DNA of 64,000 nt from Candidatus Amesbacteria bacterium GW2011_GWC2_45_19 (GTDB lineage: Bacteria > Patescibacteriota > Microgenomatia > CAZETR01 > Amesbacteraceae): positions 82,066 through 146,065 of the forward strand of contig LCKS01000001.1 in NCBI GenBank assembly GCA_001001555.1, read 5' to 3'. Shown here one piece after another: positions 3,639-31,490 of this stretch; within the stretch, counting starts at the first letter, position 1; the number at the start of each line of letters is the position of its first letter. The position numbers and the translations under genes are program-made. The notes under the pieces were generated by a model. It worked only from the letters and a program-made list of their open reading frames with translations. It had not been told where the DNA came from and made no database searches.

Positions 3639-5002
3639 TTATTTTTCTTACCCTTTTATCCGCCTTTTTTTTAAGAATCTATAGAGTCTCTGATTTTTTA
3701 GGATTCTGGTACGATCAGGGCCGGGACGCATTAGTCATCTGGGATCTGCTTCATAAAGGCAAATTCTTCCTCATAGGCCCCACCACCGGCATTGAGGGCA
3801 TTTTCTTAGGTCCTTTTTATTACTATTTTATTGCTCCGGCTTACGCTTTAGGACGGGGCCATCCGGCTGTCGCCGCTGTATTCCTGGCTCTGGTCAATGC
3901 GGCCGCTATTTATTTAGTGTATTTGTTTGGCCGCAAGTATTTCAACCAAACTACCGGCCTTCTGGCAGCCATTCTTATTTCGTTCTCAACCAGGTTTATG
4001 CAAGACCAGCGTTGGCTGTCTAATCCCACTCCATTACCCTTGTTTGCAATTATTGCTCTTCACGCTCTTATGCAGAGCCGTTGGTGGCTTTTGGGACTAA
4101 GTGTTGGATTATCTCTGCAGCTTGAAGCCGCATCTGCAATATTTTTTCTCCCGGCGATTTTAGTTATTTTGCACCGCAAATTTAACAGGCATATGCTTAT
4201 AGGACTGCTGTTTTTTGGTCTTACCCTTATGCCCCAAATTATTTTTAATTTCCGTCACCAAAACATTTTGTTTGGTGCTTTCAAAACATTTTTAGTAAGC
4301 CAGCGCAGTTTTCAGCCGCAGCCGGTGGCTTTTCTGTCCACCCGGCTGAAGTTTTACTACGATACTTTTACTCCCAGATATTTTCGCACTCCCGGCACAG
4401 CCCTGTTTTTTTCCGTTTTTACTTTGGGAACGCTGGTTCTGGTCTGGCGTAAATTACCAAACACTCCGTTAAAAGTTCTTCTTATCTGGTGGCTGACCCC
4501 GATGGTTCTGCTTCTTTTCTACCACGGGAACAAAGGCTATGTTTGGGATTATTATTTTACAGGGGTTTTTCCCGCCCTCACCCTTCTTATCTCCGCCATC
4601 TGGGTAAAAACCGGTCGGAAATTTGCTGCCATTTTCTTAACTATCTTTCTCTACCAAAATCTTTCTGCCACTTCTGCATTTTTACGCCAGCCCCAGCCCG
4701 CTTACATTTCTCTTACTCCCCAAATTCAAGCCGTAGACTGGATTTATTCTAATGCAGCCGGTAAACCATTTAATACCGACGCTTATGTTCCCCCCGTTAT
4801 TCCTTACGCCTACGATTACCTGTTTCTCTGGCGCGGCCGGCCCGAAACCAGGCTAGTTGCCGATCTGTATACCATTCAGGAACCGGATCCCGGACATCCG
4901 GGTCTTCTTAATGCTTGGTTGGCCCGGCAGGATAGTTACTCTTCGATTAAACAAACTGTTATTTTCGGCCCGCTCACGGTTCAACACCGCACCCGGCGCT
5001 GA
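3635..5002 (+). CDS. GT-C family membrane glycosyltransferase (PMT_2/ArnT-like), subfamily with YDQGRD loop
   Basis: ATGA overlap with upstream stop; polytopic; WYDQGRDALVIWDL...GPTTGIEG...GPFYYY parallels the C-terminal domain of 1482..3638. Confidence 0.65.
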   Translation: MIIFLTLLSAFFLRIYRVSDFLGFWYDQGRDALVIWDLLHKGKFFLIGPTTGIEGIFLGPFYYYFIAPAYALGRGHPAVAAVFLALVNAAAIYLVYLFGRKYFNQTTGLLAAILISFSTRFMQDQRWLSNPTPLPLFAIIALHALMQSRWWLLGLSVGLSLQLEAASAIFFLPAILVILHRKFNRHMLIGLLFFGLTLMPQIIFNFRHQNILFGAFKTFLVSQRSFQPQPVAFLSTRLKFYYDTFTPRYFRTPGTALFFSVFTLGTLVLVWRKLPNTPLKVLLIWWLTPMVLLLFYHGNKGYVWDYYFTGVFPALTLLISAIWVKTGRKFAAIFLTIFLYQNLSATSAFLRQPQPAYISLTPQIQAVDWIYSNAAGKPFNTDAYVPPVIPYAYDYLFLWRGRPETRLVADLYTIQEPDPGHPGLLNAWLARQDSYSSIKQTVIFGPLTVQHRTRR

Positions 5003-5015
5003 TATACTGGAAAGC

Positions 5016-5753
5016 ATGGCCCAAACTTATCTTTCTATTGTTATTCCCGCCTGGAATGAATCTGCCAACATCAAAAGAGGAGCCTTAGATCAAGTTCTCA
5101 AATACCTCGCCCGGCAGAAATTTTCCTGGGAAGTAATTGTTGTTAACGATGGTTCTTCAGACGACACGCTTAGACTTTTGGAAAAATATTCCATTAAAGT
5201 CATCAACAATCCCCATCAGGGTAAAGCGGCCAGTGTCGCCTCCGGAGTTTCCCAAAGCGCGGGCCGGATAATTCTTTTCAGCGATATGGACCAAGCCACT
5301 CCCATCTCCGAGTTCGACAAATTTATCCCCAAGTTTAAAGAAGGTTTCGACATTGTCATTGGCTCCAGGTCGGGCCGCAAAGGAGCTCCAATTTACCGTC
5401 AAATCCTGGCTTACGGCATGGTAATTTTGCGTACCATTCTGCTCCGCTTGCCATACCGGGACACCCAGTGCGGTTTCAAGGCTTTTACCAAGCCAACCGC
5501 CCAAAAACTTTTTGTTATTTTTAACAAAGTTCATCCCGTCAGACCGACAACGGGGGGTGTGACCAATCCGGGTTTTGACGTAGAACTACTGTATCTGAGC
5601 CGCAAGCTGGGATTTCGCACGGCAGAAGTTACAGTAAATTGGGAGCATCAGCATGGCGAGAGAGTCCGGTTTATAAAAGACGCCATCGCTGGCACTTGGG
5701 AACTGCTTCTTGTCCGCTGGCGGTCTCTTACCAATACCTATGGCCTCCGTTAA
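5016..5753 (+). CDS. GT2 polyprenyl-phosphate sugar synthase (DPM1/GtrB-like)
   Basis: LSIVIPAWNE...VIVVNDGSSDDT...FSDMDQA (DXD)...QCGFKAF; start moved to first ATG after upstream stop. Confidence 0.75.
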   Translation: MAQTYLSIVIPAWNESANIKRGALDQVLKYLARQKFSWEVIVVNDGSSDDTLRLLEKYSIKVINNPHQGKAASVASGVSQSAGRIILFSDMDQATPISEFDKFIPKFKEGFDIVIGSRSGRKGAPIYRQILAYGMVILRTILLRLPYRDTQCGFKAFTKPTAQKLFVIFNKVHPVRPTTGGVTNPGFDVELLYLSRKLGFRTAEVTVNWEHQHGERVRFIKDAIAGTWELLLVRWRSLTNTYGLR

Positions 5754-6516
5754 ACCTCTGCTTTCGGTCATAATTCCCGCCTACAACGAAGAAAAAAGGC
5801 TGGGTTCTCATTTGGAACTGGTATTGAAATTTTTTCGTTCTCGCTACCCCAACTTTGAGTTGATTATTGTCGACGACGGAAGTAACGATGCTACCGCCCG
5901 GACAATATCTGCCGCAATCCCCAAAGAACCTCGCGCTCATCTCATTACATACCAACCCAACCGGGGCAAAGGTTATGCCGTAAGAAAAGGAGTTCTGGCT
6001 TCGCGCGGCGACCCGGTTCTTTTTATGGATGCCGATTTGTCTACCCCCCTGTCCCAGGTTCCTAAAATTTTGCAGGCCCTTTGGGGGGCTGATATTGTTA
6101 TCGGTTCCCGGGGTCAGGCCAAATCCGATATCCGTCAGCGCCCTCCACTTTTCCGCAGATTAGCTTCGTTTATATTTGACCAGATTAAATATGCTTTAGT
6201 CGGCTTGCGCCGCTTCAAGGATACTCAATGCGGATTTAAAGTTTTCCGCGGATCTATCGCTCGCCAATTGTTTGCCCAAAGCCAAGTTAACCGTTTTATG
6301 TTTGACGTAGAGATTTTATATCTGGCTGAACAAGCTAGAATGATTATTCGCGAAATACCGGTCACCTGGGCCGACGCTCCCGATAGCCACGTGCGTTTTT
6401 GGGAAGGAGTGGTCAGCATGTTCCGTGACCTCTGGCGCATCCGCCGCATACACCAGGGACACTCCTTTAAGGTTAGTCCTTTTAAGGCTAAAGATCGATC
6501 ACGGAGTTCTGAATAA
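5740..6516 (+). CDS. GT2 polyprenyl-phosphate sugar synthase (DPM1/GtrB-like); C-terminal ~20 codons read through REP-like repeat copy A
   Basis: LSVIIPAYNEE...IIVDDGSNDAT...MDADLS...QCGFKVF; last residues ...HQGHSFKVSPFKAKD are encoded by the REP sequence. Confidence 0.7.
   Translation: MASVKPLLSVIIPAYNEEKRLGSHLELVLKFFRSRYPNFELIIVDDGSNDATARTISAAIPKEPRAHLITYQPNRGKGYAVRKGVLASRGDPVLFMDADLSTPLSQVPKILQALWGADIVIGSRGQAKSDIRQRPPLFRRLASFIFDQIKYALVGLRRFKDTQCGFKVFRGSIARQLFAQSQVNRFMFDVEILYLAEQARMIIREIPVTWADAPDSHVRFWEGVVSMFRDLWRIRRIHQGHSFKVSPFKAKDRSRSSE
6456..6483 (+). repeat. REP-like repeat copy A (GGGACACTCCTTTAAGGTTAGTCCTTTT)
   Basis: One of three near-identical direct copies flanking the RAYT gene. 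Confidence 0.7.
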
Positions 6517-7180
6517 CGCTAATAGAGGCCTCTTCTAATCTTTGATCTTCCACAAAAGACTCATATGAGTTTGTACCAGCCGCAGCAAAGTATCCCAAGA
6601 TGTCTTGTGGCTTTACCCACTCCTGGTTGATCCTCCCCAGGTAATTGGGATAAGATGACGGTTGGGGACACTCCTTTAAGGTTAGTCCTTTTTGAATAGG
6701 GTTGCGATGGATGTATCTAGTGAGATGAAGGAGTTGTTCTTCAGTTTCGACCAAAACAGCCTTGTAAGTATCCTGGAAAAGACCGCCAACCCGTTTATCA
6801 TGACGGTGATTAAAGTATTGAGCATAACGGGTAGCAAGAGATCTCATGAATTTCTCAATTCCTCGCTCATTCTTTTGTTTTATCAATAAATGAAAGTGGT
6901 TTGGCATCAGACAGTAAGCCCGTAAATCAATTTCTCCAGCGAAATTATTCATCCTCAACAACTTAGCTGCTTCCGATTTTTCCTTTGGTGAAGAATCGGG
7001 ATCCGCAATTATCTGAGCTAAACTACTTACGTCTTTAGGGGACAAATACTCTTTTAAGTAAGACAAAAAGACAGCTTCGTCTTGATGGTCAACAAATATC
7101 GTTCTTTTTTCCACCCCCCGGTTATAGATATGATAATAACCGTTAGGAAGATAATCTTTGACTTTGTTTCTGGCTGGCAT
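6488..7180 (-). CDS. REP-associated tyrosine transposase (RAYT; IS200/IS605-like HUH Y1 transposase)
   Basis: N-term YHIYNRG, HUH motif NHFHLLI, catalytic Tyr context RYIHRNP. ORF reads through REP copy B, so the true C-terminus may be shorter (~160 aa). Confidence 0.65.
   Translation of the reverse strand: MPARNKVKDYLPNGYYHIYNRGVEKRTIFVDHQDEAVFLSYLKEYLSPKDVSSLAQIIADPDSSPKEKSEAAKLLRMNNFAGEIDLRAYCLMPNHFHLLIKQKNERGIEKFMRSLATRYAQYFNHRHDKRVGGLFQDTYKAVLVETEEQLLHLTRYIHRNPIQKGLTLKECPQPSSYPNYLGRINQEWVKPQDILGYFAAAGTNSYESFVEDQRLEEASISVIQNSVIDL
6665..6693 (+). repeat. REP-like repeat copy B
   Basis: GGGACACTCCTTTAAGGTTAGTCCTTTTT; lies inside the 3' part of the RAYT ORF. Confidence 0.7.
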
Positions 7181-7182
7181 AG

Positions 7183-7210
7183 GGTTACTCCTTTAAGGTT
7201 AGTCCTTTTT
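7183..7210 (+). repeat. REP-like repeat copy C
   Basis: GGGTTACTCCTTTAAGGTTAGTCCTTTTT, 3 nt upstream of the RAYT start codon; followed by tandem TAGACTAAAT x2 at 7239..7258. Confidence 0.7.
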
Positions 7211-7274
7211 GGCTTGCGGGGCAATACCGAGGATGTTAGACTAAATTAGACTAAATTAATCTGGTTGAGTTTTT

Positions 7275-8733
7275 ATGAAAATCAACGCTAAAACGATAAT
7301 AATTGGACTTTCAATATTACTTCTGGCAACTACCCTTCGTTTTTGGAATCTCAATTCATTGCCCATTTTTGCGGATGAAGCCATTTATGTGCGCTGGTCC
7401 CAGGTCATGCGCGCCGAATCCTCCTTACGTTTCTTGCCTCTCTCGGACGGCAAACAGCCTCTATTCATGTGGCTCACCATTCCTTTTTTGCGCATTGGCT
7501 GGCCTGGGCACAGTCATAGGTATCGGCCTAGCTTCCTACTTTCTATTTTCTAATATCAGGTTATCAATACTCACTACCCTGCTGGCCGCTGTCCTGCCAT
7601 ACCTGGTTTTCTTCGACCGGATGGCCCTGGCAGATAGTTTATTGGCTATGTTTTTAGTTTGGACATTTAATTTTTCTTATTTGTCTTTTATTCACCGGCG
7701 GTTAGACTTAGCCATGTTTGCCGGTTTCGCTCTGGGATTTGCCTGGCTGACTAAATCTCCCGCCATCTTCGCTTTCTTTCTCCTCCCTCTCAATTTTCTT
7801 TTTATACCTAAATATTCAGCCAAAAATATTCTAATTTCTAGTTTCTATTTTCTGGTTTCTGTCGCCATTGCCTTCGGCATGTATAATATTTTGCGTTTGG
7901 GCCCGGAGTTCCATCAGATTGCCTTGCGTAATGCAGACTATGTTTTTCCGCTGGCCGAAATTTTGCGTCATCTGCTGGATCCGCTCCTGCCCCATCTTAA
8001 AGATTCTTTTCTCTTTTTTGCCTACTTTCTCACTCCGCTAGGGCTGCTGGCCGCTATTACCGGCATTCTGGCCGGAGGCCGGTCTCGTTGGCGGACTCGT
8101 CTGGTCTTGGCCGCTTGGTGGCTAGGGCCGGTGCTGGTTCAATCCGCCATCGCCAGAGCCTTCACTGCCCGTTATTTATTGTTCACCGTTCCCTTTGCCG
8201 CGATTTTGATTGGCCACGCTTTGGAACATATTGGTCAGCGTACCCAAAAGCACTTTCTATCAATGGCTGCCGCCGGTCTGATTATCCTTCCGGCTTTGGC
8301 CATGGATTATTTGGCTGTTGCCCGCCCTGAATCTTTACCCCTACCCCGGATCGAACGGTCTGGCTATTTGGAAGACTGGACAGCCGGTTACGGTCTGCGG
8401 GACGTAGCCCAACGATTGCGCCAGTACGCCGCTGCGGGTCCGGTTTTGGTCGGCAGCGAAGGCTTTTTTGGCACCCCATTTAACGCTTTGCAACTATATT
8501 TAAACGATGTTTCCAACGTCCGTGTCATTGGCGTTGGTGTCTGGATAGACTCCGTCCATGAAAAACTTAAGAATTCCTTAGCTGATAACCAGGTGTTTTT
8601 AGTTGTTAATTCCACCCGCCTGCACGCCGACCCGGATCAAATAGGGCTAAAACTCATCGTCAGTTACCCCAAAGCTTACCGTCCCGACGGCACCCGCGAG
8701 TATCTGCTATTTTTCCAAGTTTTATCTAAATGA
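7275..8733 (+). pseudogene. GT-C (PMT_2-like) glycosyltransferase interrupted by a +1 frameshift in a T6 tract (7484..7489)
   Basis: Frame 0 gives the genuine N-terminus (ADEAIYVRW...KQPLFMWLTIPFL) and stops at 7553. The +1 frame continues with genuine TM-rich sequence (CALAGLGTVIG...) to 8733. Removing one T restores a single 485-aa ORF. Confidence 0.55.
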
Positions 8734-10388
8734 AAAAAGACCTGTTATTGCTTGTGTTGCTGGTGTTGCCTGCTTTTGCCCCGCTATTGCAGCGGGGCTA
8801 CTTCTCCATGCACGACGATATGCAATCTATCCGCCAGATGAAAATGGATCAATGCCTGGCCGACTTGCAATTTCCCTGCCGCTGGAGCTTGGATTTAGGC
8901 TATGGCTACGGATACCCGCTTTTCAATTATTACCCGCCCCTGCCGTATCTTCTCGGTCAGCCTTTCCGCTGGTTAGGCTTTCAGTACATTGACGTCGTCA
9001 AAATAGTCGGGATTTTGGGATTTGTGACCGCCACCTCATTCATGTACTTATTGGGTAAAGAGTTTTGGGGCCGTTTGGGCGGGCTGATTGCGGCCGCGTT
9101 TTACACATATGCTCCATATCACTCCGTAGATTTTTACGTCCGGGGAGCCATGAATGAATTTTGGGCTCTGGCTCTTTTCCCGGCCATCTTCCTCACCACC
9201 TACAAACTCATCTCTACCTCCCAAAAAAAGTGGATTCCCTGGGTGGCTCTTTCAGTTGCCGGCCTCATGCTTTCCCACAACCCCATCCTTATGATTTTTG
9301 CACCGGTTTTGGTTATTTGGTGTCTTTTCTGGATGTTTAAATTTAGGTCAATTAGATTAATTAGGTCAATTAGAAATTTATTCGTCTCCGCTCTCTGGGC
9401 CCTGGGCCTGGCCGCCTTCTTTACCCTGCCGGTTTTGTTTGAAACCAAGTTTGTTTCAGTCTGGACACTGACTGCCGGCTATTTCAACTACCTGGCCCAC
9501 TTTTTGGATTTAAACCAGATATTTTTGCGTATTAATTGGGGCTACGGGGAATCGGTTTACGGCCGGGGAGATACCATGAGTTTTGCCCTGGGCTACCTGC
9601 ACTGGATCATTCCCACTCTTATTTTAATTCTCCTACCGTTCTCCCAAAAACTTAAAAACTTTTCAGCTTTAATTTTGACTGTTGCATTTTTAGTTTTGAG
9701 TTCTTTATTTATGTCTCACTTCAAGGCCACTCCTATCTGGCAAGCATTTCCGCCTTTGGAATTCCTACAATTTCCTTGGCGCTTCCTGACCCTGGCTATC
9801 TTCGCCGCCTCTTTTCTCTCCGGTGCCATCGCTCAAATTTTCCCTAAAAAAATCTTAATCATTTTAATCAGCTTAGTTATCTTAATTAACGGCAATTACT
9901 TCCGTCCCCGTCAGTGGTACCCGGACACGACCGACGCTAAAAAATTCTCTGGCAAATCGTGGCAGTTACTCATTACTTCCGGAATTTTTGACTATCTGCC
10001 CATCTGGGCTCCGCAACCCCCAGCTGATCCGGCCTTAGAGGACATAAAATTTATCAGCGGCGATGGTATCTACTCTACTCTAATTAAAAAAACCAACCGC
10101 CAAGAATTTTTAATCACGATCCAGACGCCCACTGCCGTGGCCGAATTACAGACCTATTACTTCCCGGGATGGAAAATTTGGGTCGATGACAAGCAAGTCA
10201 AAATTGATCCCTCCCGCGACAAAGTCCTGGGCCGGATGCAAATCGATCTTACTCCCGGCAAACATCAAGTCCTCGCCCGCTTCACCGCCACCCCCGTCAG
10301 AACTATCGGCAACACTTTGTCTCTTATAGCTTGGGTGGCTTTAGTTTGCCATTGGTGGAGTCGAAGACCATTTGTCCGCGGTCGTTAG
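8730..10388 (+). CDS. Large polytopic membrane protein, family B (putative GT-C-like glycosyltransferase/polymerase); paralog of 24584..26089
   Basis: 552 aa, >10 TM; shared motifs FPCRW..D.GYGYP.FN.Y, YAPY..VD.YVRGA.NE, C-terminal TP(I/V)RTIGN + TM; contains an 18-nt in-frame tandem duplication at 9343..9378. Confidence 0.45.
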   Translation: MKKDLLLLVLLVLPAFAPLLQRGYFSMHDDMQSIRQMKMDQCLADLQFPCRWSLDLGYGYGYPLFNYYPPLPYLLGQPFRWLGFQYIDVVKIVGILGFVTATSFMYLLGKEFWGRLGGLIAAAFYTYAPYHSVDFYVRGAMNEFWALALFPAIFLTTYKLISTSQKKWIPWVALSVAGLMLSHNPILMIFAPVLVIWCLFWMFKFRSIRLIRSIRNLFVSALWALGLAAFFTLPVLFETKFVSVWTLTAGYFNYLAHFLDLNQIFLRINWGYGESVYGRGDTMSFALGYLHWIIPTLILILLPFSQKLKNFSALILTVAFLVLSSLFMSHFKATPIWQAFPPLEFLQFPWRFLTLAIFAASFLSGAIAQIFPKKILIILISLVILINGNYFRPRQWYPDTTDAKKFSGKSWQLLITSGIFDYLPIWAPQPPADPALEDIKFISGDGIYSTLIKKTNRQEFLITIQTPTAVAELQTYYFPGWKIWVDDKQVKIDPSRDKVLGRMQIDLTPGKHQVLARFTATPVRTIGNTLSLIAWVALVCHWWSRRPFVRGR

Positions 10389-22988: not shown

Positions 22989-24587
22989 ATGCGCCGTTTA
23001 TTAATTCTGGCCCTGATTATCGGATCGCTCACGCGTCTCTTGTGGATCTCCCGCTATCCGGCCGGATTCACTGCCGACGAAGCAGCTTTTGGCTACAATG
23101 CCTACTCGCTCTTGCTTACCGGCCGTGACGAATGGGGGACTCCCTGGTGGCAATTGTTTTTTACCAACCTCCGTTCCTTTGGGGATTATAAACTTCCCCT
23201 TTACGCTTTCCTGGCCGTTCCCTCCGTTAAAATATTTGGTCTGACTGAATTTGCCGTCCGCCTGCCCAACGCCATTTTTGGCATTCTGGCTATCACAAGC
23301 ATTTACTTACTGGCAAAAAAGTTATACCTCACCTCTCACCCCTCTCCTTTAAAAGGAGAGGGGAACGCAAGGGGTGAGGTACTGGGAGTAACTTCTGCAT
23401 TACTGCTAGCCATCAGCCCCTGGCATATTCAACTGTCCCGGGGTGCCTTTGAAGCCAATCTGGCCACCTTTCTCTTGCCGATGGGGATCTATCTGCTTCT
23501 GGAAAGCCATCCTCTCCTTTCCACCCTCTTTTTTATCGCCTCGGCCTACTCCTATCATTCCGCCAGACTAATATTGCCGTTCATCCTCGTTTTTCTTTTT
23601 ATATACTTCCGGGATAAATTCAAACCCCTATTAATTATTCCTCTTCTGATCTCGCTTTGGGGGCTGACTTCCCCCCGGGTGGCTGACGTAAGCATTTTCA
23701 GCCCTACCGATAACTGGTTAGGAGTAGCCACCCGCCGTTTTGAAGCCCGGGCCCTGGGTCTTCCGGACCAAATAGCCCGCGTTTTTTCCAACAAACTGGT
23801 TTATTCACTTTCTACATTCACCCAAAATTATATTTCCTATTTCTCTCCCAACTTTCTGTTCACCTCCGGGGCCGGCGAATCCTTTTACGGCATGATGCCG
23901 GGCAGGGGAGTGCTTTATTTGATTGAACTGCCAATTTTGATCATGGCCCTAATTTATTTCATCCGTCGGCCATCAAAACTATATTTACTATTACTTTTAC
24001 TATTACTAATCTCCCCTATTCCCGCCGCTTTGGCCAAAGGTCCCGGAGCCGCCGCCAACCGCGCGGCAATCATGCTTCCCTGGCTGGTAATTTTTCTCTC
24101 TACCATTATTGTCCGCCTTCCGCGCAAATGGCTGGCTCTTTTAGCCGGCGCTTACGTTATTAGCTTCGTCTTTTTCGTCGAGGATTATCTATATCATTCC
24201 TCTTATATTACCGCCCCTTCCATGTCTTACGGATGGCGGGAATTGGTGCCGCGCCTCAAGCCTTTTTCCGACCGCTTTTCCGATGTGCGCTTCAGCCGCT
24301 CTCTTTCCGAACCGCATATTTTTGTGGCTTTTTATTCCCGTTTCGATCCCCGGGAGTATCAAAAAGCCGCGGCTTCCTGGCCCCGCCATATCAAGTTTTT
24401 GGACCAGTTTGATGGTTATTATTTGGGTAAATACCGTTTCGGCGACATTCATCCCCAAGATCCGGTAATCACTCCTACACTTTTCATTGGTAAACCGGAG
24501 GATTTTCCCGCCGGTTTTCCCCAATATTTCCAGATTGATTATCCTTCTTCCCGGCCGGCTATCATAGTCGCCCAAAAACTTCCATGA
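22989..24587 (+). CDS. GT-C family membrane glycosyltransferase, paralog 2; carries in-frame palindromic mini-element insertion
   Basis: FTADEAAFGYNAYSLLLTGRDEWG; extra 17 aa (SHPSPLKGEGNARGEVL) relative to paralogs, encoded by nested inverted repeats. Confidence 0.65.
   Translation: MRRLLILALIIGSLTRLLWISRYPAGFTADEAAFGYNAYSLLLTGRDEWGTPWWQLFFTNLRSFGDYKLPLYAFLAVPSVKIFGLTEFAVRLPNAIFGILAITSIYLLAKKLYLTSHPSPLKGEGNARGEVLGVTSALLLAISPWHIQLSRGAFEANLATFLLPMGIYLLLESHPLLSTLFFIASAYSYHSARLILPFILVFLFIYFRDKFKPLLIIPLLISLWGLTSPRVADVSIFSPTDNWLGVATRRFEARALGLPDQIARVFSNKLVYSLSTFTQNYISYFSPNFLFTSGAGESFYGMMPGRGVLYLIELPILIMALIYFIRRPSKLYLLLLLLLLISPIPAALAKGPGAAANRAAIMLPWLVIFLSTIIVRLPRKWLALLAGAYVISFVFFVEDYLYHSSYITAPSMSYGWRELVPRLKPFSDRFSDVRFSRSLSEPHIFVAFYSRFDPREYQKAAASWPRHIKFLDQFDGYYLGKYRFGDIHPQDPVITPTLFIGKPEDFPAGFPQYFQIDYPSSRPAIIVAQKLP
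23326..23380 (+). repeat. Palindromic mini-element (MITE/REPIN-like) inside GT-C coding sequence
   Basis: Inner perfect palindrome CCCCTCTCCTTT-A-AAAGGAGAGGGG (23339..23363); outer arms CTCACCCCT / AGGGGTGAG; preceded by 7-mer periodic CCTCACC TCTCACC CCTCTCC. Confidence 0.65.
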
Positions 24588-26089: not shown

Positions 26090-27549
26090 TTTTACGGCTG
26101 GCTGCCATTAATTTTTTGCCGCCCAGTCTCAACTGGGACGAAGTGTCACTGGGCTACAACGCTTACTCGCTTCTTAAAACCGGCCGGGATGAATGGGGAA
26201 CAGTTCTGCCCACTATTTTTCGCGCTTATGGCGATTACAAATTGCCTGTTTACGTTTATCTGGCCACAGTCATGCCCTTTTTTGTGCGCCTGCCCTCAAT
26301 CATTCTGGGCACCCTGCTCATTGTAATCACCTATCTATTAGGCCGCCGGCTATCTTCTCCGTTCGTGGGCTTGACTTCGGCTTTGCTGGTAGCCATCTCT
26401 CCCTGGACCTGGTGGATGTCCCGCATCGCATTGGAAGCCAATGTGGGGGTCTTGCTCATTGTCGTAGGTGTCTACTGTCTACTAATCCGTAAACTTAACT
26501 TGGGAATTCTCTTTTTGGGACTGTCAGTTTGGGCTTACAACTCCGCCCGTGTTTTCTCCCCCCTATTTTTATCCGCTTATTTTTTGATTTATCGTCCCAA
26601 ATTATCTATTGTCTCCTATTCTCTAATTTCTATTTTCCTCATCCCTATGATTATTCAGCTCTTGTCTCCGGTTGGTCAAGCCCGCCTCAACTGGCTGACT
26701 CTTTTGGATTCTGGAGCTATTTCCCGCATAGAGAACCTGCAAACCACCCGCCCCGGCGGCCGTCTGCTGTACAACAAGGCCACTTATTTTACCTACCGTT
26801 TCGTTCAAAATTACATCAGTTACTTTTCTCCCAATTTCTTATTTCTCAAGGGAGGAAACCATTATCAATTCAGCGTCCAAAACTTCGGCCTTCTTTATCT
26901 AATCTGTTTGCCATTTTTTTACATTGGGATTTTGAATTTATTTGGATCTTCGAATTTTAAATTTAGAATTTTACTTCTCATATGGCTCTTGTTGGCCCCA
27001 ATTGCTGGTAGTTTGACCCGTGACGCGCCTCATGTCTTACGCGCTGTCCCCCTGCTTCCTTTACCCATGCTGCTTATCTCCCTCGGCCTGGACCGTTTCG
27101 GCCGTAACGTTAAAGCCTTTTTCTTCACGGGTCTCCTAATATCTATTATCTACTATCTAGTATCCGCGAATAGTTACCGTAGTAACTATTCGCAATCTTG
27201 GCAATATGGTTATTCCCAGGTAGTTCAATTTATTAAACCCCGGTACTCCCAATACGACCAAATCGTTTTTACCAAAAAGTATGGGGAGCCTCACGAATTC
27301 GTGGCTTATTTCTGGCCCTGGGATCCCGCTGACTTTGCCAAAAATAAATCCTGGGACTACCACGCCAATTGGTATTGGGTAAACGCTTTGGATAAGATAA
27401 AGTTCGTAAACGATTGGGAGATTAAAAACATGGCCTTTAAACCGAACACTTTGGTTATTTCCAGTCCCGAAAGTGAAATTGCCGGCCGCGAGATAACCAG
27501 AATTAATTTTCTCGACGGCCAACCCGCCTTTATCATTTATGAGAAATAG
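26044..27549 (+). CDS. GT-C family membrane glycosyltransferase, paralog 3
   Basis: LNWDEVSLGYNAYSLLKTGRDEWG; shares exact 22-nt string CTATTCTCTAATTTCTATTTTC (26616..26637) with 2816..2837. Confidence 0.65.
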   Translation: MSHLKWLLLITAAGLILRLAAINFLPPSLNWDEVSLGYNAYSLLKTGRDEWGTVLPTIFRAYGDYKLPVYVYLATVMPFFVRLPSIILGTLLIVITYLLGRRLSSPFVGLTSALLVAISPWTWWMSRIALEANVGVLLIVVGVYCLLIRKLNLGILFLGLSVWAYNSARVFSPLFLSAYFLIYRPKLSIVSYSLISIFLIPMIIQLLSPVGQARLNWLTLLDSGAISRIENLQTTRPGGRLLYNKATYFTYRFVQNYISYFSPNFLFLKGGNHYQFSVQNFGLLYLICLPFFYIGILNLFGSSNFKFRILLLIWLLLAPIAGSLTRDAPHVLRAVPLLPLPMLLISLGLDRFGRNVKAFFFTGLLISIIYYLVSANSYRSNYSQSWQYGYSQVVQFIKPRYSQYDQIVFTKKYGEPHEFVAYFWPWDPADFAKNKSWDYHANWYWVNALDKIKFVNDWEIKNMAFKPNTLVISSPESEIAGREITRINFLDGQPAFIIYEK

Positions 27550-29101
27550 AATTATTCTCTTATTCATAGTCCTACTTGGGCTGGGACTTAGACTGTTTCG
27601 TCTAGATTCCCGCCCGTTAGGCTTTACCTGGGACGAAGCCGCTCTTGGTTACAACGCTTATTCGCTTCTTAAAACTGGCCGGGACGAGTATAGCAAAGTC
27701 CTACCCGTCGTTCTCAAATCCTTTGGCGACTACAAACCCGGCGCCTATGCCTACCTGGCTGTTCCTCCTATCGCCACTTTCGGCTTGAACGAGTTCGCCA
27801 CCCGTCTGCCCTCAGCCATCTTTGGAACGTTGCTTATTGTTATTGTTTACCTGCTCACCCGGAATATGTTTGCGGCCGGACTTTTGGCCATTAATCCCTG
27901 GTCGCTTTATTTTTCCCGCGGGGCTTGGGAGGCCAATGTCGCTCTTACCCTCACCGTTCTGGGCGTCCTTTTGTTTATCCGCCGCCGTTATCTGGTTTCG
28001 GCTCTCTTTTTTGGTTTGACCTTTCTTACTTACCAGGGAGCCAAAATGTTTACTCCGCTTCTTATTTTGTCCCTTCTTCTAATCTACCGTCCCAATATTA
28101 AATCATTAATTAAACCCCTGATCTTCCTGATCTTCCTGATCTTCCCCATCCTCCTGGGTCTCACCACCCAATCCGGCCGCCTGAAGGTCTTTAGCGTCTT
28201 CAGTTATTCGCGTTCTCCTTCCGTCGTCGGGGAAATAGAACGTCAGGATAATAACAATCCTTTTCTTTTCACTCTCTTCCATGCAGAAATTATTGACCAG
28301 GGCCGGGGAGTACTGCAAAGATATCTCAACCATTTTTCTCCTTATTATCTGTTCTTCGCCGGAGACTGGCAAAACCTGCGCCACTCCATTCCTTACTACG
28401 GCTACTTCCACCTTCCGGAAATAGTTACTGTCGTTCTAGGTCTTATTTTCCTAATCTCTAATTTCCAATCTCCAATTTCTAAAGTTCTTCTCACTTGGCT
28501 GCTGCTGGCCCCTTTGCCCTCCGCCCTTTCCCGCGACCTAGTCTCCGGCGTCCGCTCCCTGCCCCTGCTGGTACCCCTGGTCGTGCTTAGCGGCATTGGT
28601 TTGTCCCAACTTTTTCGCCATCGTCTTCTCTTATACTCTTACGCTCTGATACTTTTATTTTTCTTCGTCTATTATCTTGATTTATTCTATATCCACGCCC
28701 CCAATTTCACTGCCGTTGACTTCCTTTATCCCTATCGCCCCGCGCTTCAGACAATCAAACTTCTTGTCTCAAATTATAAAAAGATTGTTATCACTTCCCA
28801 ACTTGGTCAACCCTACATATTTACTTTATTTTATTTGCAAATCGACCCCCGCATATATCAATCTCAAGCCCGTTTGCGCGAAAATCCCCAAGGGGACGTA
28901 GGCGAAGTAGAAAAATTTGATATATTCGAATTCCGTCCCATTTTCTGGCCGGCTGATAGGGGATTGTCATCAACTCTATTTGTGGGTGGCCAGTACGAGC
29001 TTCCCGAATCAGATTTACAGACCACTCCCAATCTGGAAAGAGTTTCCGATATCACTTACCCCGGCGGGGCCCCCGCCTTAAAAATTGTTGGCCTCAAATG
29101 A
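27539..29101 (+). CDS. GT-C family membrane glycosyltransferase, paralog 4
   Basis: FTWDEAALGYNAYSLLKTGRDEY; contains (CCTGATCTT)x3. Confidence 0.65.
   Translation: MRNRIILLFIVLLGLGLRLFRLDSRPLGFTWDEAALGYNAYSLLKTGRDEYSKVLPVVLKSFGDYKPGAYAYLAVPPIATFGLNEFATRLPSAIFGTLLIVIVYLLTRNMFAAGLLAINPWSLYFSRGAWEANVALTLTVLGVLLFIRRRYLVSALFFGLTFLTYQGAKMFTPLLILSLLLIYRPNIKSLIKPLIFLIFLIFPILLGLTTQSGRLKVFSVFSYSRSPSVVGEIERQDNNNPFLFTLFHAEIIDQGRGVLQRYLNHFSPYYLFFAGDWQNLRHSIPYYGYFHLPEIVTVVLGLIFLISNFQSPISKVLLTWLLLAPLPSALSRDLVSGVRSLPLLVPLVVLSGIGLSQLFRHRLLLYSYALILLFFFVYYLDLFYIHAPNFTAVDFLYPYRPALQTIKLLVSNYKKIVITSQLGQPYIFTLFYLQIDPRIYQSQARLRENPQGDVGEVEKFDIFEFRPIFWPADRGLSSTLFVGGQYELPESDLQTTPNLERVSDITYPGGAPALKIVGLK
28117..28143 (+). 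repeat. 9-nt tandem repeat (CCTGATCTT)x3 in GT-C paralog 4
   Basis: Read directly; encodes LIFLIFLIF in a TM segment. Confidence 0.8.
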
Positions 29102-30675
29102 AAAAATTTCTCCTCATTTTCATTCTTATCCTGGCATCAGTCCTGCGGCTCTACAAACTGTCTTCATACCCGGCTGGTCTAAACGCCGATGAAGCCGCGT
29201 TAGGTTACAATGCTTATTCTTTGATGCTGACCGGCCGTGATGAGCACGGCCATCCCTGGCCGGTGAATCTGGAATCGTTCGGCGATTTCAAGCCTGCCGG
29301 CTACGCGTATTTGCTCATTCCTTTCATCAAAGTTTTCGGCCTGACCGAACTGGCCGTCCGCCTCCCCTCGGCTATCTTCGGCATCCTAGCCGTTCTCTTC
29401 ATCTATTTACTGGTCAAAGAGCTGAGCACTGAGGGCTGCGCGCTGATAGCTGCGATATTGCTAGCAATATCGCCGTGGCATTTGCACTTCTCCCGCGGCG
29501 GCTGGGAAGTCAACGTGGCCACCACTCTGATTCTCATCGGCGTCTGGCTCTTCCTCAAACGTCGCTTTGCCCTTTGCACTTTGCCCTTTGCACTTTCGAT
29601 GTACACCTACCAATCAGCCCGCGTCATCGTCCCTTTTCTGGGATTAGGACTAATATTACTCAATCGCCCAAAAAAGATTCTGTCTAGCGGCTTATTACTG
29701 TTACTGTTATTATCTCCTCTGGCCCTCTCGGTACTTCGTTCAGACGCCGCCTCCCGTTTATCCGGCGTGGGGCTGCTGGCCGATGAAGGGCCTCTTAACC
29801 GGGCCAAAGAACTGCGCGGCCAACATGCAAACTGGAGTTCTCCTCTGTCCCGGATTCTCCACAACCGGCCCGTTCTCTACACCATCCAATTCTTGAAAAA
29901 TTACACAGATCATTTTTCCGGCGACTTTCTTTTCGTCAACGGCGACGTCATCCCCCGGAACCGGGTTCCCGAAACCGGCCTGCTGTATTTCACTGATTTC
30001 ATCTTTCTGGCTCTGGGCGTGGTCTATCTTCTCCGCACTACTCACTACTCACTACACACCCGGGTTATCTGGCTCTGGTTGCTCGTCGCCCCTCTTGCTG
30101 CGGCTCTGACGTTCCAAATCCCCCACGCCCTGCGGGCCCACACCTTGGTCATTCCCCTCACGATCTTGATCGCGGCCGGCGGATACTCTTTAAAGGAGAC
30201 TCCTTTTAAGTTTAAAAGGAGTCTCCTTTTTATAGTGGCTGTGATTTATTTGTGGCAATTTGCCAGATATCTGCACCAGTATTACATCCACTATCCCCAA
30301 ACTTATCCTTACGCTTGGGAGTACGGTTTCAAAGAACTGGTGGCTTACGTGGGATCGGTCCAAGACAAATATGAAAAGATTTTAGTCACCGATAAATATG
30401 ACCAGCCATATATTATCTTTCTCTTTTATTCCAAGTATCCGCCTCAATTATTCCAAAATAATCACCAGCTTACTTTCAGGGATAAGTTTAATTTCTCTAC
30501 CGTCCGCGACTACGGCAAGTTCCATTTTGCCGCCACTCCCTGGTCAACCGTCCGCGATATCCATTCCTCGCTTATTGTGGCCGCCCCGGAAGATATTCCC
30601 GAAGTAGGTGTTAATATAGTTAAAACCATTAATTTTCCCAATGGCCAGCCCGCATTTAAAATAATCAGCAACTAA
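29098..30675 (+). CDS. GT-C family membrane glycosyltransferase, paralog 5
   Basis: LNADEAALGYNAYSLMLTGRDEHG; closest to paralog 1 (RRFALCTLPFALSMYTY). Confidence 0.65.
   Translation: MKKFLLIFILILASVLRLYKLSSYPAGLNADEAALGYNAYSLMLTGRDEHGHPWPVNLESFGDFKPAGYAYLLIPFIKVFGLTELAVRLPSAIFGILAVLFIYLLVKELSTEGCALIAAILLAISPWHLHFSRGGWEVNVATTLILIGVWLFLKRRFALCTLPFALSMYTYQSARVIVPFLGLGLILLNRPKKILSSGLLLLLLLSPLALSVLRSDAASRLSGVGLLADEGPLNRAKELRGQHANWSSPLSRILHNRPVLYTIQFLKNYTDHFSGDFLFVNGDVIPRNRVPETGLLYFTDFIFLALGVVYLLRTTHYSLHTRVIWLWLLVAPLAAALTFQIPHALRAHTLVIPLTILIAAGGYSLKETPFKFKRSLLFIVAVIYLWQFARYLHQYYIHYPQTYPYAWEYGFKELVAYVGSVQDKYEKILVTDKYDQPYIIFLFYSKYPPQLFQNNHQLTFRDKFNFSTVRDYGKFHFAATPWSTVRDIHSSLIVAAPEDIPEVGVNIVKTINFPNGQPAFKIISN
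29565..29596 (+). repeat. Degenerate heptamer array (CTTTGC[A/C])x4 in GT-C paralog 5, homologous position to (TTTGCAC)x4 in paralog 1
   Basis: gCTTTGCCCTTTGCACTTTGCCCTTTGCACTTTcg. Confidence 0.7.
30192..30229 (+). repeat. Perfect 18-bp inverted repeat with 2-nt spacer (REPIN-like doublet) inside GT-C paralog 5
   Basis: AAAGGAGACTCCTTTTAA-GT-TTAAAAGGAGTCTCCTTT; core GACTCCTTTTAAG resembles REP core CACTCCTTTAAGG. Confidence 0.65.
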
Positions 30676-31490
30676 TGAAGTATCACCCCTCCTCACTACG
30701 TTCGGTTTCCCCTCTTAAATTAAGAGGGGACAAAGGGGTGATATTGTCTGTTGTTCTTGCCACTCGCAATGAGGAGGCCAATCTAACTCGTTGTCTGGAG
30801 GCGGTAAAATCGATTGCCAATGAGATAATCATTGCGGACGAGCAATCAACCGACAAAACAGTGGGAATAGCCAAAAAATTCGGGGCAAAAGTCATTTCTG
30901 TTCCGCATCAGGAAAATTTCCATATCACCAAAAATATCGCCATAGACGCCGCCCGTGGAGACTGGATCCTCCAATTAGATGCCGACGAAGTCGTCTCCCC
31001 CGAACTGGCTTGCGAAATTGTCTCTACTATCAACCATGAATCATCAACCATGAACGGTTATTGGGTTAACCGCCGCAATTGGTTTCTCACCCGCTTCTTA
31101 TCTAAAGGCGGCCAATATCCGGATCCCACTCTCCGCCTGTACCGCCGGGGAAAAGGAAGACTTCCGGCCAAAGACGTGCACGAGCAAGCACAGATCCAGG
31201 GTCCAACCGGCCGCTTGCGGAACGATTTGTACCACTACCGGGATACCAGTTTCGCCAAGTACTTAGATGGTTTTAATCGCTATTCATCGTTTTTGGCGGC
31301 AAATATTAACCCCGAGGTCAATTTGCGGCAAACTCTCAACTACCTGGGCTGCAAACCAGTGGTAACGTTTTGTAAAATCTATTTTCGTCACCGGGGTTAC
31401 GTTGACGGTTACCCTGGTTTTGTCTTTGCCCTCTTTTCCGGCCTCACCCACGCCATCGCCTATATTAAATATTGGCAAAGGTTATTATGA
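30675..31490 (+). CDS. GT2 glycosyltransferase (short soluble type); true start possibly GTG at 30738
   Basis: VVLATRNEE...EIIIADEQSTDKT...LDADEVV. The first 21 codons (KYHPSSLRSVSPLKLRGDKG) are encoded by a palindromic mini-element and are probably not native coding sequence. Confidence 0.65.
   Translation: MKYHPSSLRSVSPLKLRGDKGVILSVVLATRNEEANLTRCLEAVKSIANEIIIADEQSTDKTVGIAKKFGAKVISVPHQENFHITKNIAIDAARGDWILQLDADEVVSPELACEIVSTINHESSTMNGYWVNRRNWFLTRFLSKGGQYPDPTLRLYRRGKGRLPAKDVHEQAQIQGPTGRLRNDLYHYRDTSFAKYLDGFNRYSSFLAANINPEVNLRQTLNYLGCKPVVTFCKIYFRHRGYVDGYPGFVFALFSGLTHAIAYIKYWQRLL
30681..30743 (+). repeat. Palindromic mini-element (same architecture as 23326..23380) at gene junction
   Basis: Outer perfect 10-bp arms TATCACCCCT / AGGGGTGATA; inner CCCCTCTTAA-A-TTAAGAGGGG (30709..30729). 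Confidence 0.65.

Follow-up and report, generated by a model that had tools for sequence, protein, structure and literature searches.

A probable REPtron/TIRtron-like locus in Patescibacteria: a putative long-lived Y1 HUH nuclease gene and the short repeat unit around and inside it

Why should a single small gene carry the same short DNA repeat in front of its start codon, within its coding sequence and behind its stop codon? This question is raised by a locus in a stretch of 64,000 nucleotides (hereafter, the window) from the genome of Candidatus Amesbacteria bacterium GW2011_GWC2_45_19 (positions 82,066 to 146,065 of contig LCKS01000001.1). A first-pass annotation, made from the sequence alone, had interpreted the gene as that of a RAYT, that is, a transposase of the REP-associated tyrosine type (REP, repetitive extragenic palindrome), with its REP-like repeats. 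To our knowledge, work on RAYT-REP systems has been limited almost entirely to Proteobacteria and a few other phyla, and we found no literature on the Patescibacteria family to which this gene belongs. The locus falls in a known family, the class-2 Y1 nucleases, of which it represents a large and so far undescribed branch in Patescibacteria. The reading that we favor, with a probability of about two in three, is that of a REPtron/TIRtron-like locus, in which a long-lived gene for a class-2 Y1 HUH nuclease of the RAYT/TIRYT kind is accompanied by a cognate short repeat unit.

The gene (6488..7180, minus strand) encodes a predicted class-2 TnpAY1 (RAYT/TIRYT-like) HUH nuclease of 230 amino acids (aa), presumably acting on single-stranded DNA. 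As reported in the first pass, the open reading frame (ORF) contains a YHIYNRG motif (aa 16-22), NHFH as its HUH motif (aa 94-97) and a candidate catalytic tyrosine, Tyr156, in the context RYIHRNP; these are followed by PSSY (aa 175-178), which holds the 'SS' motif, and by a small C-terminal domain made of helices. The Pfam domain Y1_Tnp (PF01797) is matched over aa 72-160 (50.1 bits, the cut-off being 23; E 3.7e-13), and the NCBIfam model NF047646 (REP_Tyr_transpos), which aligns to aa 75-167 only, scores 56.7 bits, that is, under its equivalog cut-off of 80. A homology search in which 8000 candidates were scored yielded 7783 matches. H95, H97 and Y156 do not vary in an alignment of 34 sequences, where N160 is conserved to at least 90%, and the profile of this 34-member family aligns its HUH and tyrosine motifs to those of ISDra2 TnpA. 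The AlphaFold (AF2) model that was built on the same alignment is confident (mean predicted local distance difference test, pLDDT, 87.3; predicted template modelling score, pTM, 0.85), and its best match in the Protein Data Bank (PDB), found with Foldseek, is 4ER8, the E. coli RAYT in complex with a REP hairpin, followed by the ISDra2 (2XMA), IS608 (2VJV) and IS200 transposases; the HUH fold that had been anticipated from the motifs, ferredoxin-like and with a single tyrosine on a C-terminal helix, is recovered in the model. Judging by motifs, profile matches and modelled fold, the ORF encodes an HUH/Y1 enzyme.

The first pass had also suggested that the protein is really only ~160 aa long and ends at the internal copy of the repeat, and this suggestion was abandoned. 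The best 120 homologues, the named ones among which come from Patescibacteria and Amesbacteria, are 209-259 aa long, most of them aligning across the whole query, and we consider the protein to span 230 aa because its C-terminal 70 aa contain residues that are invariant in the 34-sequence alignment (S176, Y180, W188, Y206 and F209); in the model, this tail folds confidently into helices. No helix-turn-helix (HTH) domain (Bac_DnaA_C, HTH_23 or HTH_28) was matched in the tail with Pfam at E<=0.01, the fold of the tail not having been searched separately.

The repeat has a core of 23 nucleotides (nt), ACTCCTTTAAGGTTAGTCCTTTT, which occurs exactly three times in the window, always on the plus strand, at 6461, 6670 and 7187; no further match was found in the 64 kb with up to three mismatches (0 are expected in shuffled sequences), and a shorter, 18-nt core hits the same three sites only. 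The three copies that had been noticed around and inside the gene were therefore confirmed, with the correction that the full unit delineated by the repeat finder, GGG[AC/TT]ACTCCTTTAAGGTTAGTCCTTTT (6456-6483, 6665-6692 and 7182-7209), is 28 rather than 27 nt long. The copies are direct with respect to each other, and we list them here on the minus strand, that of the gene. Copy C (7182..7209, minus strand) lies directly 5' of the start codon, a position shared with the orthologous loci L001, L002, L092 and L096; its 23-mer ends 6 nt, and its 28-mer 1 nt, from the ATG, compared with the 3 nt stated previously. Copy B (6665..6692, minus strand) is in frame within the ORF, encoding QKGLTLKEC (aa 162-170) and the first base of Pro171, and falls in the loop straight after the helix that carries the catalytic tyrosine (residues 147-159 in the AF2 model). 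Copy A (6456..6483, minus strand) starts 4 nt beyond the TAG stop codon.

Copy B had been described as a repeat through which the ORF happens to read. It is indeed translated in frame, but it is a native loop, not an intrusion: its position is kept in all orthologues of the gene, and the peptide reads QKGLTLKEC, QKGLSLKDC or SKGVTLKES in the closest homologues. This peptide occupies what we take to be the place of the ...NPVxAGLV... stretch of RAYTs. A candidate fourth, decayed unit at nt 117-142 of the ORF was rejected; it is unit-like, yet encodes a conserved SYLKEYL motif.

The unit of the window is a degenerate version of the family repeat, with a 4-bp stem and a weak hairpin. Folding of the three copies as DNA, on both strands, gives -1.9 to -4.3 kcal/mol (z from -0.3 to -1.2), which is not better than shuffled sequences and rules out a strong hairpin, and the GT[AG]G foot (GTAG or GTGG) is not present in the unit.

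Orthologous loci were drawn from NCBI, ENA, JGI and Logan assemblies. The closest homologues of the protein (71-82% aa identity) are encoded at the same junction, between a GT2 glycosyltransferase gene and a PMT_2 gene and on the strand opposite to both, and this GT2|PMT_2 synteny holds in six lineages and in independent assemblies (L001, L002-L006, L091, L092 and L096). The three-copy layout is present in every orthologous locus with complete sequence, and the sequence of the unit changes from lineage to lineage. The window, L096 and L001 share AAGGACTAACCTT (in shorter form, GGACTAACC); L092 has AAGGA(G/T)TATCCTT; all three copies read AAGGAT(T/A)ATCCTT in L002 and AAGGAG(T/A)C(T/A)CCTTAAAAGA in L093, a 68% homologue in a different context (IleRS, Y1, ... 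FtsZ). Because the copies share lineage-specific changes within a locus, they evolve in concert, locus by locus.

The same pattern extends, in part, to the family at large. GTDB species genomes contributed 80 loci, from Levy-, Davies-, Woese-, Gottesman-, Shapiro- and Beckwithbacteria, Saccharibacteria and others. For each of 88 scorable genes, the ORF and the 70 nt on either side of it were compared with one another, using mismatched pairs of loci as the control. The upstream and downstream sequences share a repeat above the 99th percentile of the control in 60 of the 88 genes, the upstream sequence and the ORF in 35, and the downstream sequence and the ORF in 30. Copies within the ORF occur at two fixed places, which are occupied in 42 of the 88 homologous genes: among 50 such copies, 31 lie no more than 25 aa after the tyrosine motif, a placement seen in 31 of the 88 family members, and 16 before the HUH motif; another three are in the tail, and the segment from HUH to Y has none. 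Each locus has a repeat of its own, in most cases a strong palindrome, such as TGACAAGGGGGGCCCTTGTCA and CTAAGGGTCCGACCCTTAGTA, with a stem much stronger than that of the window unit; an AAGG-N-loop-N'-CCTT apex is common to many of these repeats, and inverted doublets occur among them. In most family loci, the flanking copies have the same orientation. The window contains a single gene of the family; in genomes with two members, the paralogues are 31-65% identical, and each has a repeat of its own. One genome can contain several such diverged members of the branch. The gene is antisense to all its neighbours in the close orthologues, and a general orientation rule was discarded, since the 72 scorable genes divide into 23 opposite to, 24 in the same direction as, and 25 mixed with respect to their neighbours.

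These comparisons dispose of the concern that the three copies are an assembly artefact, or a product of chance or of a recent local duplication of no significance. Such a concern is understandable for a contig of metagenomic type in which the PMT_2 gene is frameshifted and the GC content varies along the window. Chance, though, predicts no match at all, the layout recurs in independent NCBI, ENA, JGI and Logan assemblies and across the 88 family members with their different sequences, and the orthologous loci refute this explanation in practice, leaving it a negligible probability.

The next question is how the gene came to reside at its site. In L089, the gene is missing and the stop codon of the GT2 gene overlaps the start of the PMT_2 gene (ATGA), with GT2 and PMT_2 78% and 82% identical to those of the window; this junction is a clean empty site. 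From the absence of the Y1 gene in L089 and in L086, we infer gain or loss at the GT2|PMT_2 junction. As a side observation, L086, the closest relative by GT2 (84%), carries at this junction (4772-5122) a gene for a 116-aa protein of the 23S_rRNA_IVP four-helix-bundle type; small accessory genes may settle preferentially at this junction.

An empty site naturally brings up the alternative that the whole ~820-bp cassette, comprising the 5' block, copy C, the gene and copy A, is an autonomous IS200-like element which uses C and A as its end hairpins, moves by single-strand 'peel and paste' and is precisely excised. In IS200/IS605 elements, the end hairpins are arranged on the same strand, and IS200 is roughly 700 bp in size. 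The direct orientation of the flanking copies in most loci and the size of the cassette agree with this model, as do the clean junction in L089, the other small gene in L086, the 68%-identical homologue in a different context and the L001 Y1 gene, which is closer to that of the window (77%) than are the flanking genes of L001 (68-69%). The sequences at the junction have diverged, which blurs the ends of the cassette and its target. The features of the protein and its distribution point the other way. The catalytic motif is the Y---NP of class 2, and the protein has 230 aa rather than ~150; the same site is occupied in six lineages down to 71% identity; and units also occur without the gene. 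Nor are there near-identical copies: no second copy of this kind was found anywhere in the data gathered, and the paralogues are 31-65% identical, against ~99% for the genomic copies of IS200, class-2 TnpAY1 paralogues being generally diverged and each having its own repeat (PMC6006769). We therefore regard an autonomous IS200-like cassette as unlikely. Given the lack of near-identical second copies and the stable site in six lineages, a long-lived gene that is mostly vertically inherited and only rarely moves fits the data better than an active insertion sequence, and long-lived, mostly vertical inheritance with rare movement has been described for RAYTs (PMC5581495).

Several variants of the gene were encountered in metagenomes. 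The JGI contig Ga0208373_1120940 (L097) is identical to positions 6400-7300 of the window but for 64 nt that are missing from the Y1 gene (ORF nt 125-188), a deletion which has AAAG microhomology and shifts the frame. Of two ENA groundwater contigs (P0001/L103 and P0051/L102), one carries H95P in the HUH motif, and in the other an IS3-like N-terminus is fused at ...NHLLIKQK, by insertion or as an assembly chimera.

If the unit is cognate to the nuclease, is it confined to the nuclease gene? It is not: the units are low-copy and yet occur elsewhere. The exact 23-mer has no match in the GTDB species representative genomes, and it is found on six JGI metagenome contigs, L096-L101, of which L096 is an orthologous Y1 locus and L097 the deletion variant described above. 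Three of them (L098, L099 and L101) contain one identical solo intergenic site, between two small ORFs near IleRS and FtsZ, where the unit forms part of a complete 'double-foot' palindrome, GGGACACTCC-A-AAAAGGACTAACCTTAAAGGAGTGTCCC. In L100, the 23-mer is in frame in a GT1 glycosyltransferase gene, encoding KRTNLKGV, and a GT1 orthologue from another aquifer, L104, has AAGGATAATCCTTAAAGGAGTGTCCC at the same place, that is, a loop of the L002 type (GGATAATCC). The repeat is thus not unique to the locus. Two links that these sites might suggest were rejected. The L098 solo unit cannot be regarded as the footprint of a lost Y1 gene, the L093 gene being located between IleRS and the first small ORF and the L098 unit between the two small ORFs, and the GGATAATCC unit in the L104 GT1 gene could not be linked to the L002 genome, the two belonging to different metagenome-assembled genomes of the same aquifer.

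More broadly, the flanks of 53 family genes (855 kb) contain 16 extra matches to the respective units at 15 distinct sites, or about 1 per 55 kb, and 5 of the 16 are inside long ORFs. In the window, a 45-nt segment without assigned strand (30185..30229; AAAGGAGACTCCTTTTAAGTTTAAAAGGAGTCTCCTTT) is an inverted, REPIN-like doublet with a perfect palindrome of 16-17 bp, formed by a sister unit, AAGGAG(A/T)CTCCTT, of the type found on either side of the paralogous Y1 gene P0009/L093; the doublet lies in frame within an ORF of 525 aa that resembles PMT_2, a membrane glycosyltransferase (29098-30675). Separately, we observed that the 21 kb polysaccharide-synthesis locus of L104 contains two types of units, at 10138 and 18162, one of them of the L093 type, each in frame in a glycosyltransferase gene, which suggests that units accumulate in this class of genes. 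The long ORFs of the glycosyltransferase cluster of the window also include four perfect palindromes of 9-12 bp (23339-23363, 27166-27193, 29452-29473 and 30708-30730), two of which share CCCCTCT...AGAGGGG arms, with ~1 stem of at least 9 bp expected by chance in 64 kb; these may be other families of units.

The dispersal of the units also bears on the possibility that the repeats are cis-regulatory elements, such as a ribosome-binding region, an attenuator or a terminator, which are kept alike by local gene conversion and have no link to DNA cleavage by the protein. The positions of the copies speak for this possibility. Copy C holds AAAGGAG, the sole Shine-Dalgarno-like sequence ahead of the ATG, with its last G 8 nt from the start codon; copy A, read on the plus strand, forms a small stem with TTTT behind it where the GT2 gene ends; and several relatives have a downstream repeat that overlaps with the stop codon. 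Consensus scans, however, revealed neither a promoter nor a terminator at the repeats, so that such a role was set aside, and the folding energies are no better than those of shuffles. Furthermore, the same unit is found far from any Y1 gene, within unrelated coding regions; each paralogue has its own unit, as in RAYT-REP pairs; and repeats of some 25 nt are at the limit of the length required for homologous gene conversion. In view of these observations, we consider a purely cis-regulatory origin of the pattern very unlikely.

The favored reading, a long-lived nuclease gene with its cognate unit, implies a mechanism that can be outlined by analogy with E. coli TnpA-REP and with the TnpA proteins of IS608 and ISDra2. 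The protein would bind the small stem-loop of the unit (AAGG-N5-CCTT with the 3' tail GGAGTGTCCC) on single-stranded DNA, cut beside it by means of an HUH-bound metal and Tyr156, and rejoin the strands, so that units would be copied or moved; the gene itself would remain at the GT2|PMT_2 junction by mainly vertical inheritance and be gained or lost only rarely. Binding, cleavage and mobilisation of this kind would account for the presence of the same unit 5' of, 3' of and inside the gene, for the likeness of the units within a genome and their difference between genomes, and for the few extra units elsewhere, often in frame in coding loops of very compact genomes.

Several observations weigh against this reading. 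The unit of the window is a poor hairpin that folds no better than shuffled sequence and lacks the GT[AG]G tag, its flanking copies are direct rather than inverted, the protein scores under the NCBIfam RAYT cut-off, and no copy of the unit lies outside the Y1 locus in the 64 kb. Where units reside in coding sequences, they do not clearly add length: the region of copy B matches the canonical length; the loop with the doublet in ORF 29098-30675 is as long as in its homologues, with no net insertion; and the GT1 unit coincides with a patchy 8-aa indel, the segment being present also in distant homologues. Simple insertion is therefore not demonstrated for the units within ORFs. In addition, the solo copies are not tied to a genome with a cognate Y1 gene, and the population variants (H95P, the 64-nt deletion and the fusion) look inactivated, which suggests weak selection here. 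With these reservations, the part of the initial RAYT/REP interpretation that persists is an HUH/Y1 enzyme with its own flanking repeat; a classical, abundant REP with a GTAG tag it is not, considering the direct copies and the score below the cut-off.

A bolder version of the favored reading can also be formulated. The three-copy layout might be a working circuit in which the nuclease cleaves units within and near its own gene, as well as those in other coding loops, and rewrites them by templated rejoining, keeping all units of a genome identical, protein-coding ones included, and overwriting loops with no change in length, while the direct C-B-A copies could allow reversible deletion of part of the gene as a form of self-regulation. 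We regard this version as quite unlikely; if true, it would represent enzyme-driven homogenisation of short coding segments in ultra-small genomes.

The GT2 (dolichyl-phosphate glucosyltransferase-like) gene (5740..6516, plus strand) has a C-terminal tail that extends across copy A and shares 29 nt with the Y1 gene, at the 3' end of the latter. Copy A had been credited with the last ~20 codons of GT2. It does supply, from the strand opposite to the Y1 gene, nine codons of the extended tail (GHSFKVSPF), but the final 10 codons are antisense to the Y1 3' end. The GT2 orthologue in L001 also reads through the unit; the extension is incidental, given that the L002 GT2 stops ahead of the repeat. 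On the other side, the cassette is bordered by the PMT_2 (GT-C) gene (7275..8733, plus strand), identified with Pfam. Its frameshift, correctly spotted in the first pass, was reproduced by tblastn with the L086, L089 and L001 orthologues, which produces matches in two frames: compared with orthologues at 82% identity, ~11 codons are absent and the frame changes near 7489-7496. The broken gene is either a pseudogene or an assembly error.

Between copy C and the PMT_2 gene lies the conserved 5' non-coding block of the cassette (7210..7274, minus strand), in which ...TTAGACTGAATT...TTGCC.CGCAA... is kept in L001, L002, L092 and L096, even where the neighbour gene differs. The block is a possible promoter region; a consensus scan of 7210..7274 detected no promoter. 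Within it, the 10-mer TAGACTAAAT is tandemly duplicated at 7237-7256 and present in a single copy in the orthologues. Searches with Rfam found no family in the 5-9 kb interval at E<=1 save for one chance match, and neither an Rfam family at the gathering threshold nor a tRNA gene in the whole window. Near 32-36 kb of the window, the GC content drops from 0.45-0.49 (1-32000) to 0.37-0.42 (36000-64000), and the GC skew changes from about -0.1 to -0.19 to about 0; this shift may mark a boundary in composition, an island or a chimeric join.

In our view, what is most interesting here is the family-wide pattern, namely, flanking and in-frame cognate repeats at two positions, their concerted evolution and their occasional presence in other coding loops. 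If the link between enzyme and unit is real, the family would offer a compact system for the study of the co-evolution of nucleases and repeats and could reveal how genomes that have hardly any intergenic DNA tolerate repeats or put them to use. Annotation is affected as well, as such genes are labelled 'transposase' and yet lack the behaviour of insertion sequences.

How, then, does the locus compare with known systems? The most obvious counterpart is the REPtron, a RAYT/TnpA-REP gene with flanking REPs, exemplified by E. coli YafM (PDB 4ER8) and reportedly characterized by Nunvar in 2010, Bertels and Rainey in 2011 and Ton-Hoang in 2012. The likeness includes the predicted Y1 HUH fold, with 4ER8 as the best structural match, and the Y---NP motif; a gene flanked by its own short repeats, palindromic in most members of the family; and a separate type of repeat for each paralogue, with no recent duplicates and with long-term synteny. 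Unlike in REPtrons, the window unit has no GT[AG]G foot, the flanking units of the family are mostly direct rather than inverted pairs, their copy number is very low, the host is a member of Patescibacteria, and the score is below the NCBIfam equivalog cut-off; this protein also has an extra insert of ~45 aa between beta1 and HUH and a helical tail of 70 aa.

TnpAY1 proteins have been divided into 12 subclasses (Quentin et al. 2018, PMC6006769), class 2 being defined by the Y---NP catalytic motif as opposed to the Y---Q of IS200 (PMC6006769). Subclass 2.1, with the motifs NH[YF]H, FQ at the W position, Y[IV]HLNP and SS and a length of ~238 aa (Table 1 in PMC6006769), is the same as group 1 of Bertels and as TIRYT/TIRtron (PMC6006769; Di Nocera et al. 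2013, PMC3733652). The window protein, with NHFH, LFQD, YIHRNP (YIHLNP in P0007 and P0044), PSSY and 230 aa, fits this TIRYT-like subclass as judged by motifs, not by the authors' profiles. The diverged intragenomic copies and the only moderate repetition of the flanking repeats also are TIRYT-like. TIRtrons have inverted terminal repeats with GGGGWSAS (PMC3733652); copy B contains GGGGACAC, which fits this consensus, and copy A has GGGACAC instead. The copies here, however, are direct, with the third one in the ORF, whereas TIRtron repeats are inverted, and the tail of this protein has no HTH/Bac_DnaA_C match in Pfam. No REP-like structures were found for subclass 2.1 by Quentin et al. (PMC6006769).

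Copies of REPs inside the gene have been reported for subclass 2.4 only, between HuH and Y (PMC6006769). The resemblance consists in cognate repeats that are in frame inside the nuclease gene, in regions of the protein surface, besides the flanking ones. The differences are that 0 of the 50 in-ORF copies here are located between HuH and Y, that the position of copy B adds no length, and that subclass 2.4 has the motifs YIxNNP and WQ and is hosted by Cyanobacteria and Bacteroidetes. With the IS200/IS605 elements (IS608 and ISDra2), the locus shares the predicted Y1 HUH fold, a unit of ~0.7-0.8 kb with what may be a same-strand hairpin at either end and, in L089, an empty site compatible with seamless excision; it differs in having Y---NP instead of Y---Q, 230 aa instead of ~150, no identical copies, no tnpB, and synteny across deep divergence.

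Finally, in-frame palindromic units have been described in host genes, namely, the Rickettsia palindromic elements (RPEs) and some REPs (PMC3733652), and RPE and CGTC repeats occur without an associated transposase (Di Nocera et al., PMC3733652). The units in the GT1 genes of L100 and L104 and in the PMT_2-like ORF are, likewise, short in-frame palindromic units in coding genes of small genomes; in contrast to the RPEs, a cognate Y1 gene exists here, and at least one doublet within an ORF adds nothing to the length of the protein. Taken together, this Patescibacteria branch unites features known from various subclasses, combining motifs like those of subclass 2.1/TIRYT, flanks like those of REPtrons, units of very low copy number, some of which are in frame within coding loops, as in 5 of the 16 extra matches and in the GT1 and PMT_2-like cases, and in-gene copies as in subclass 2.4 but at other places.

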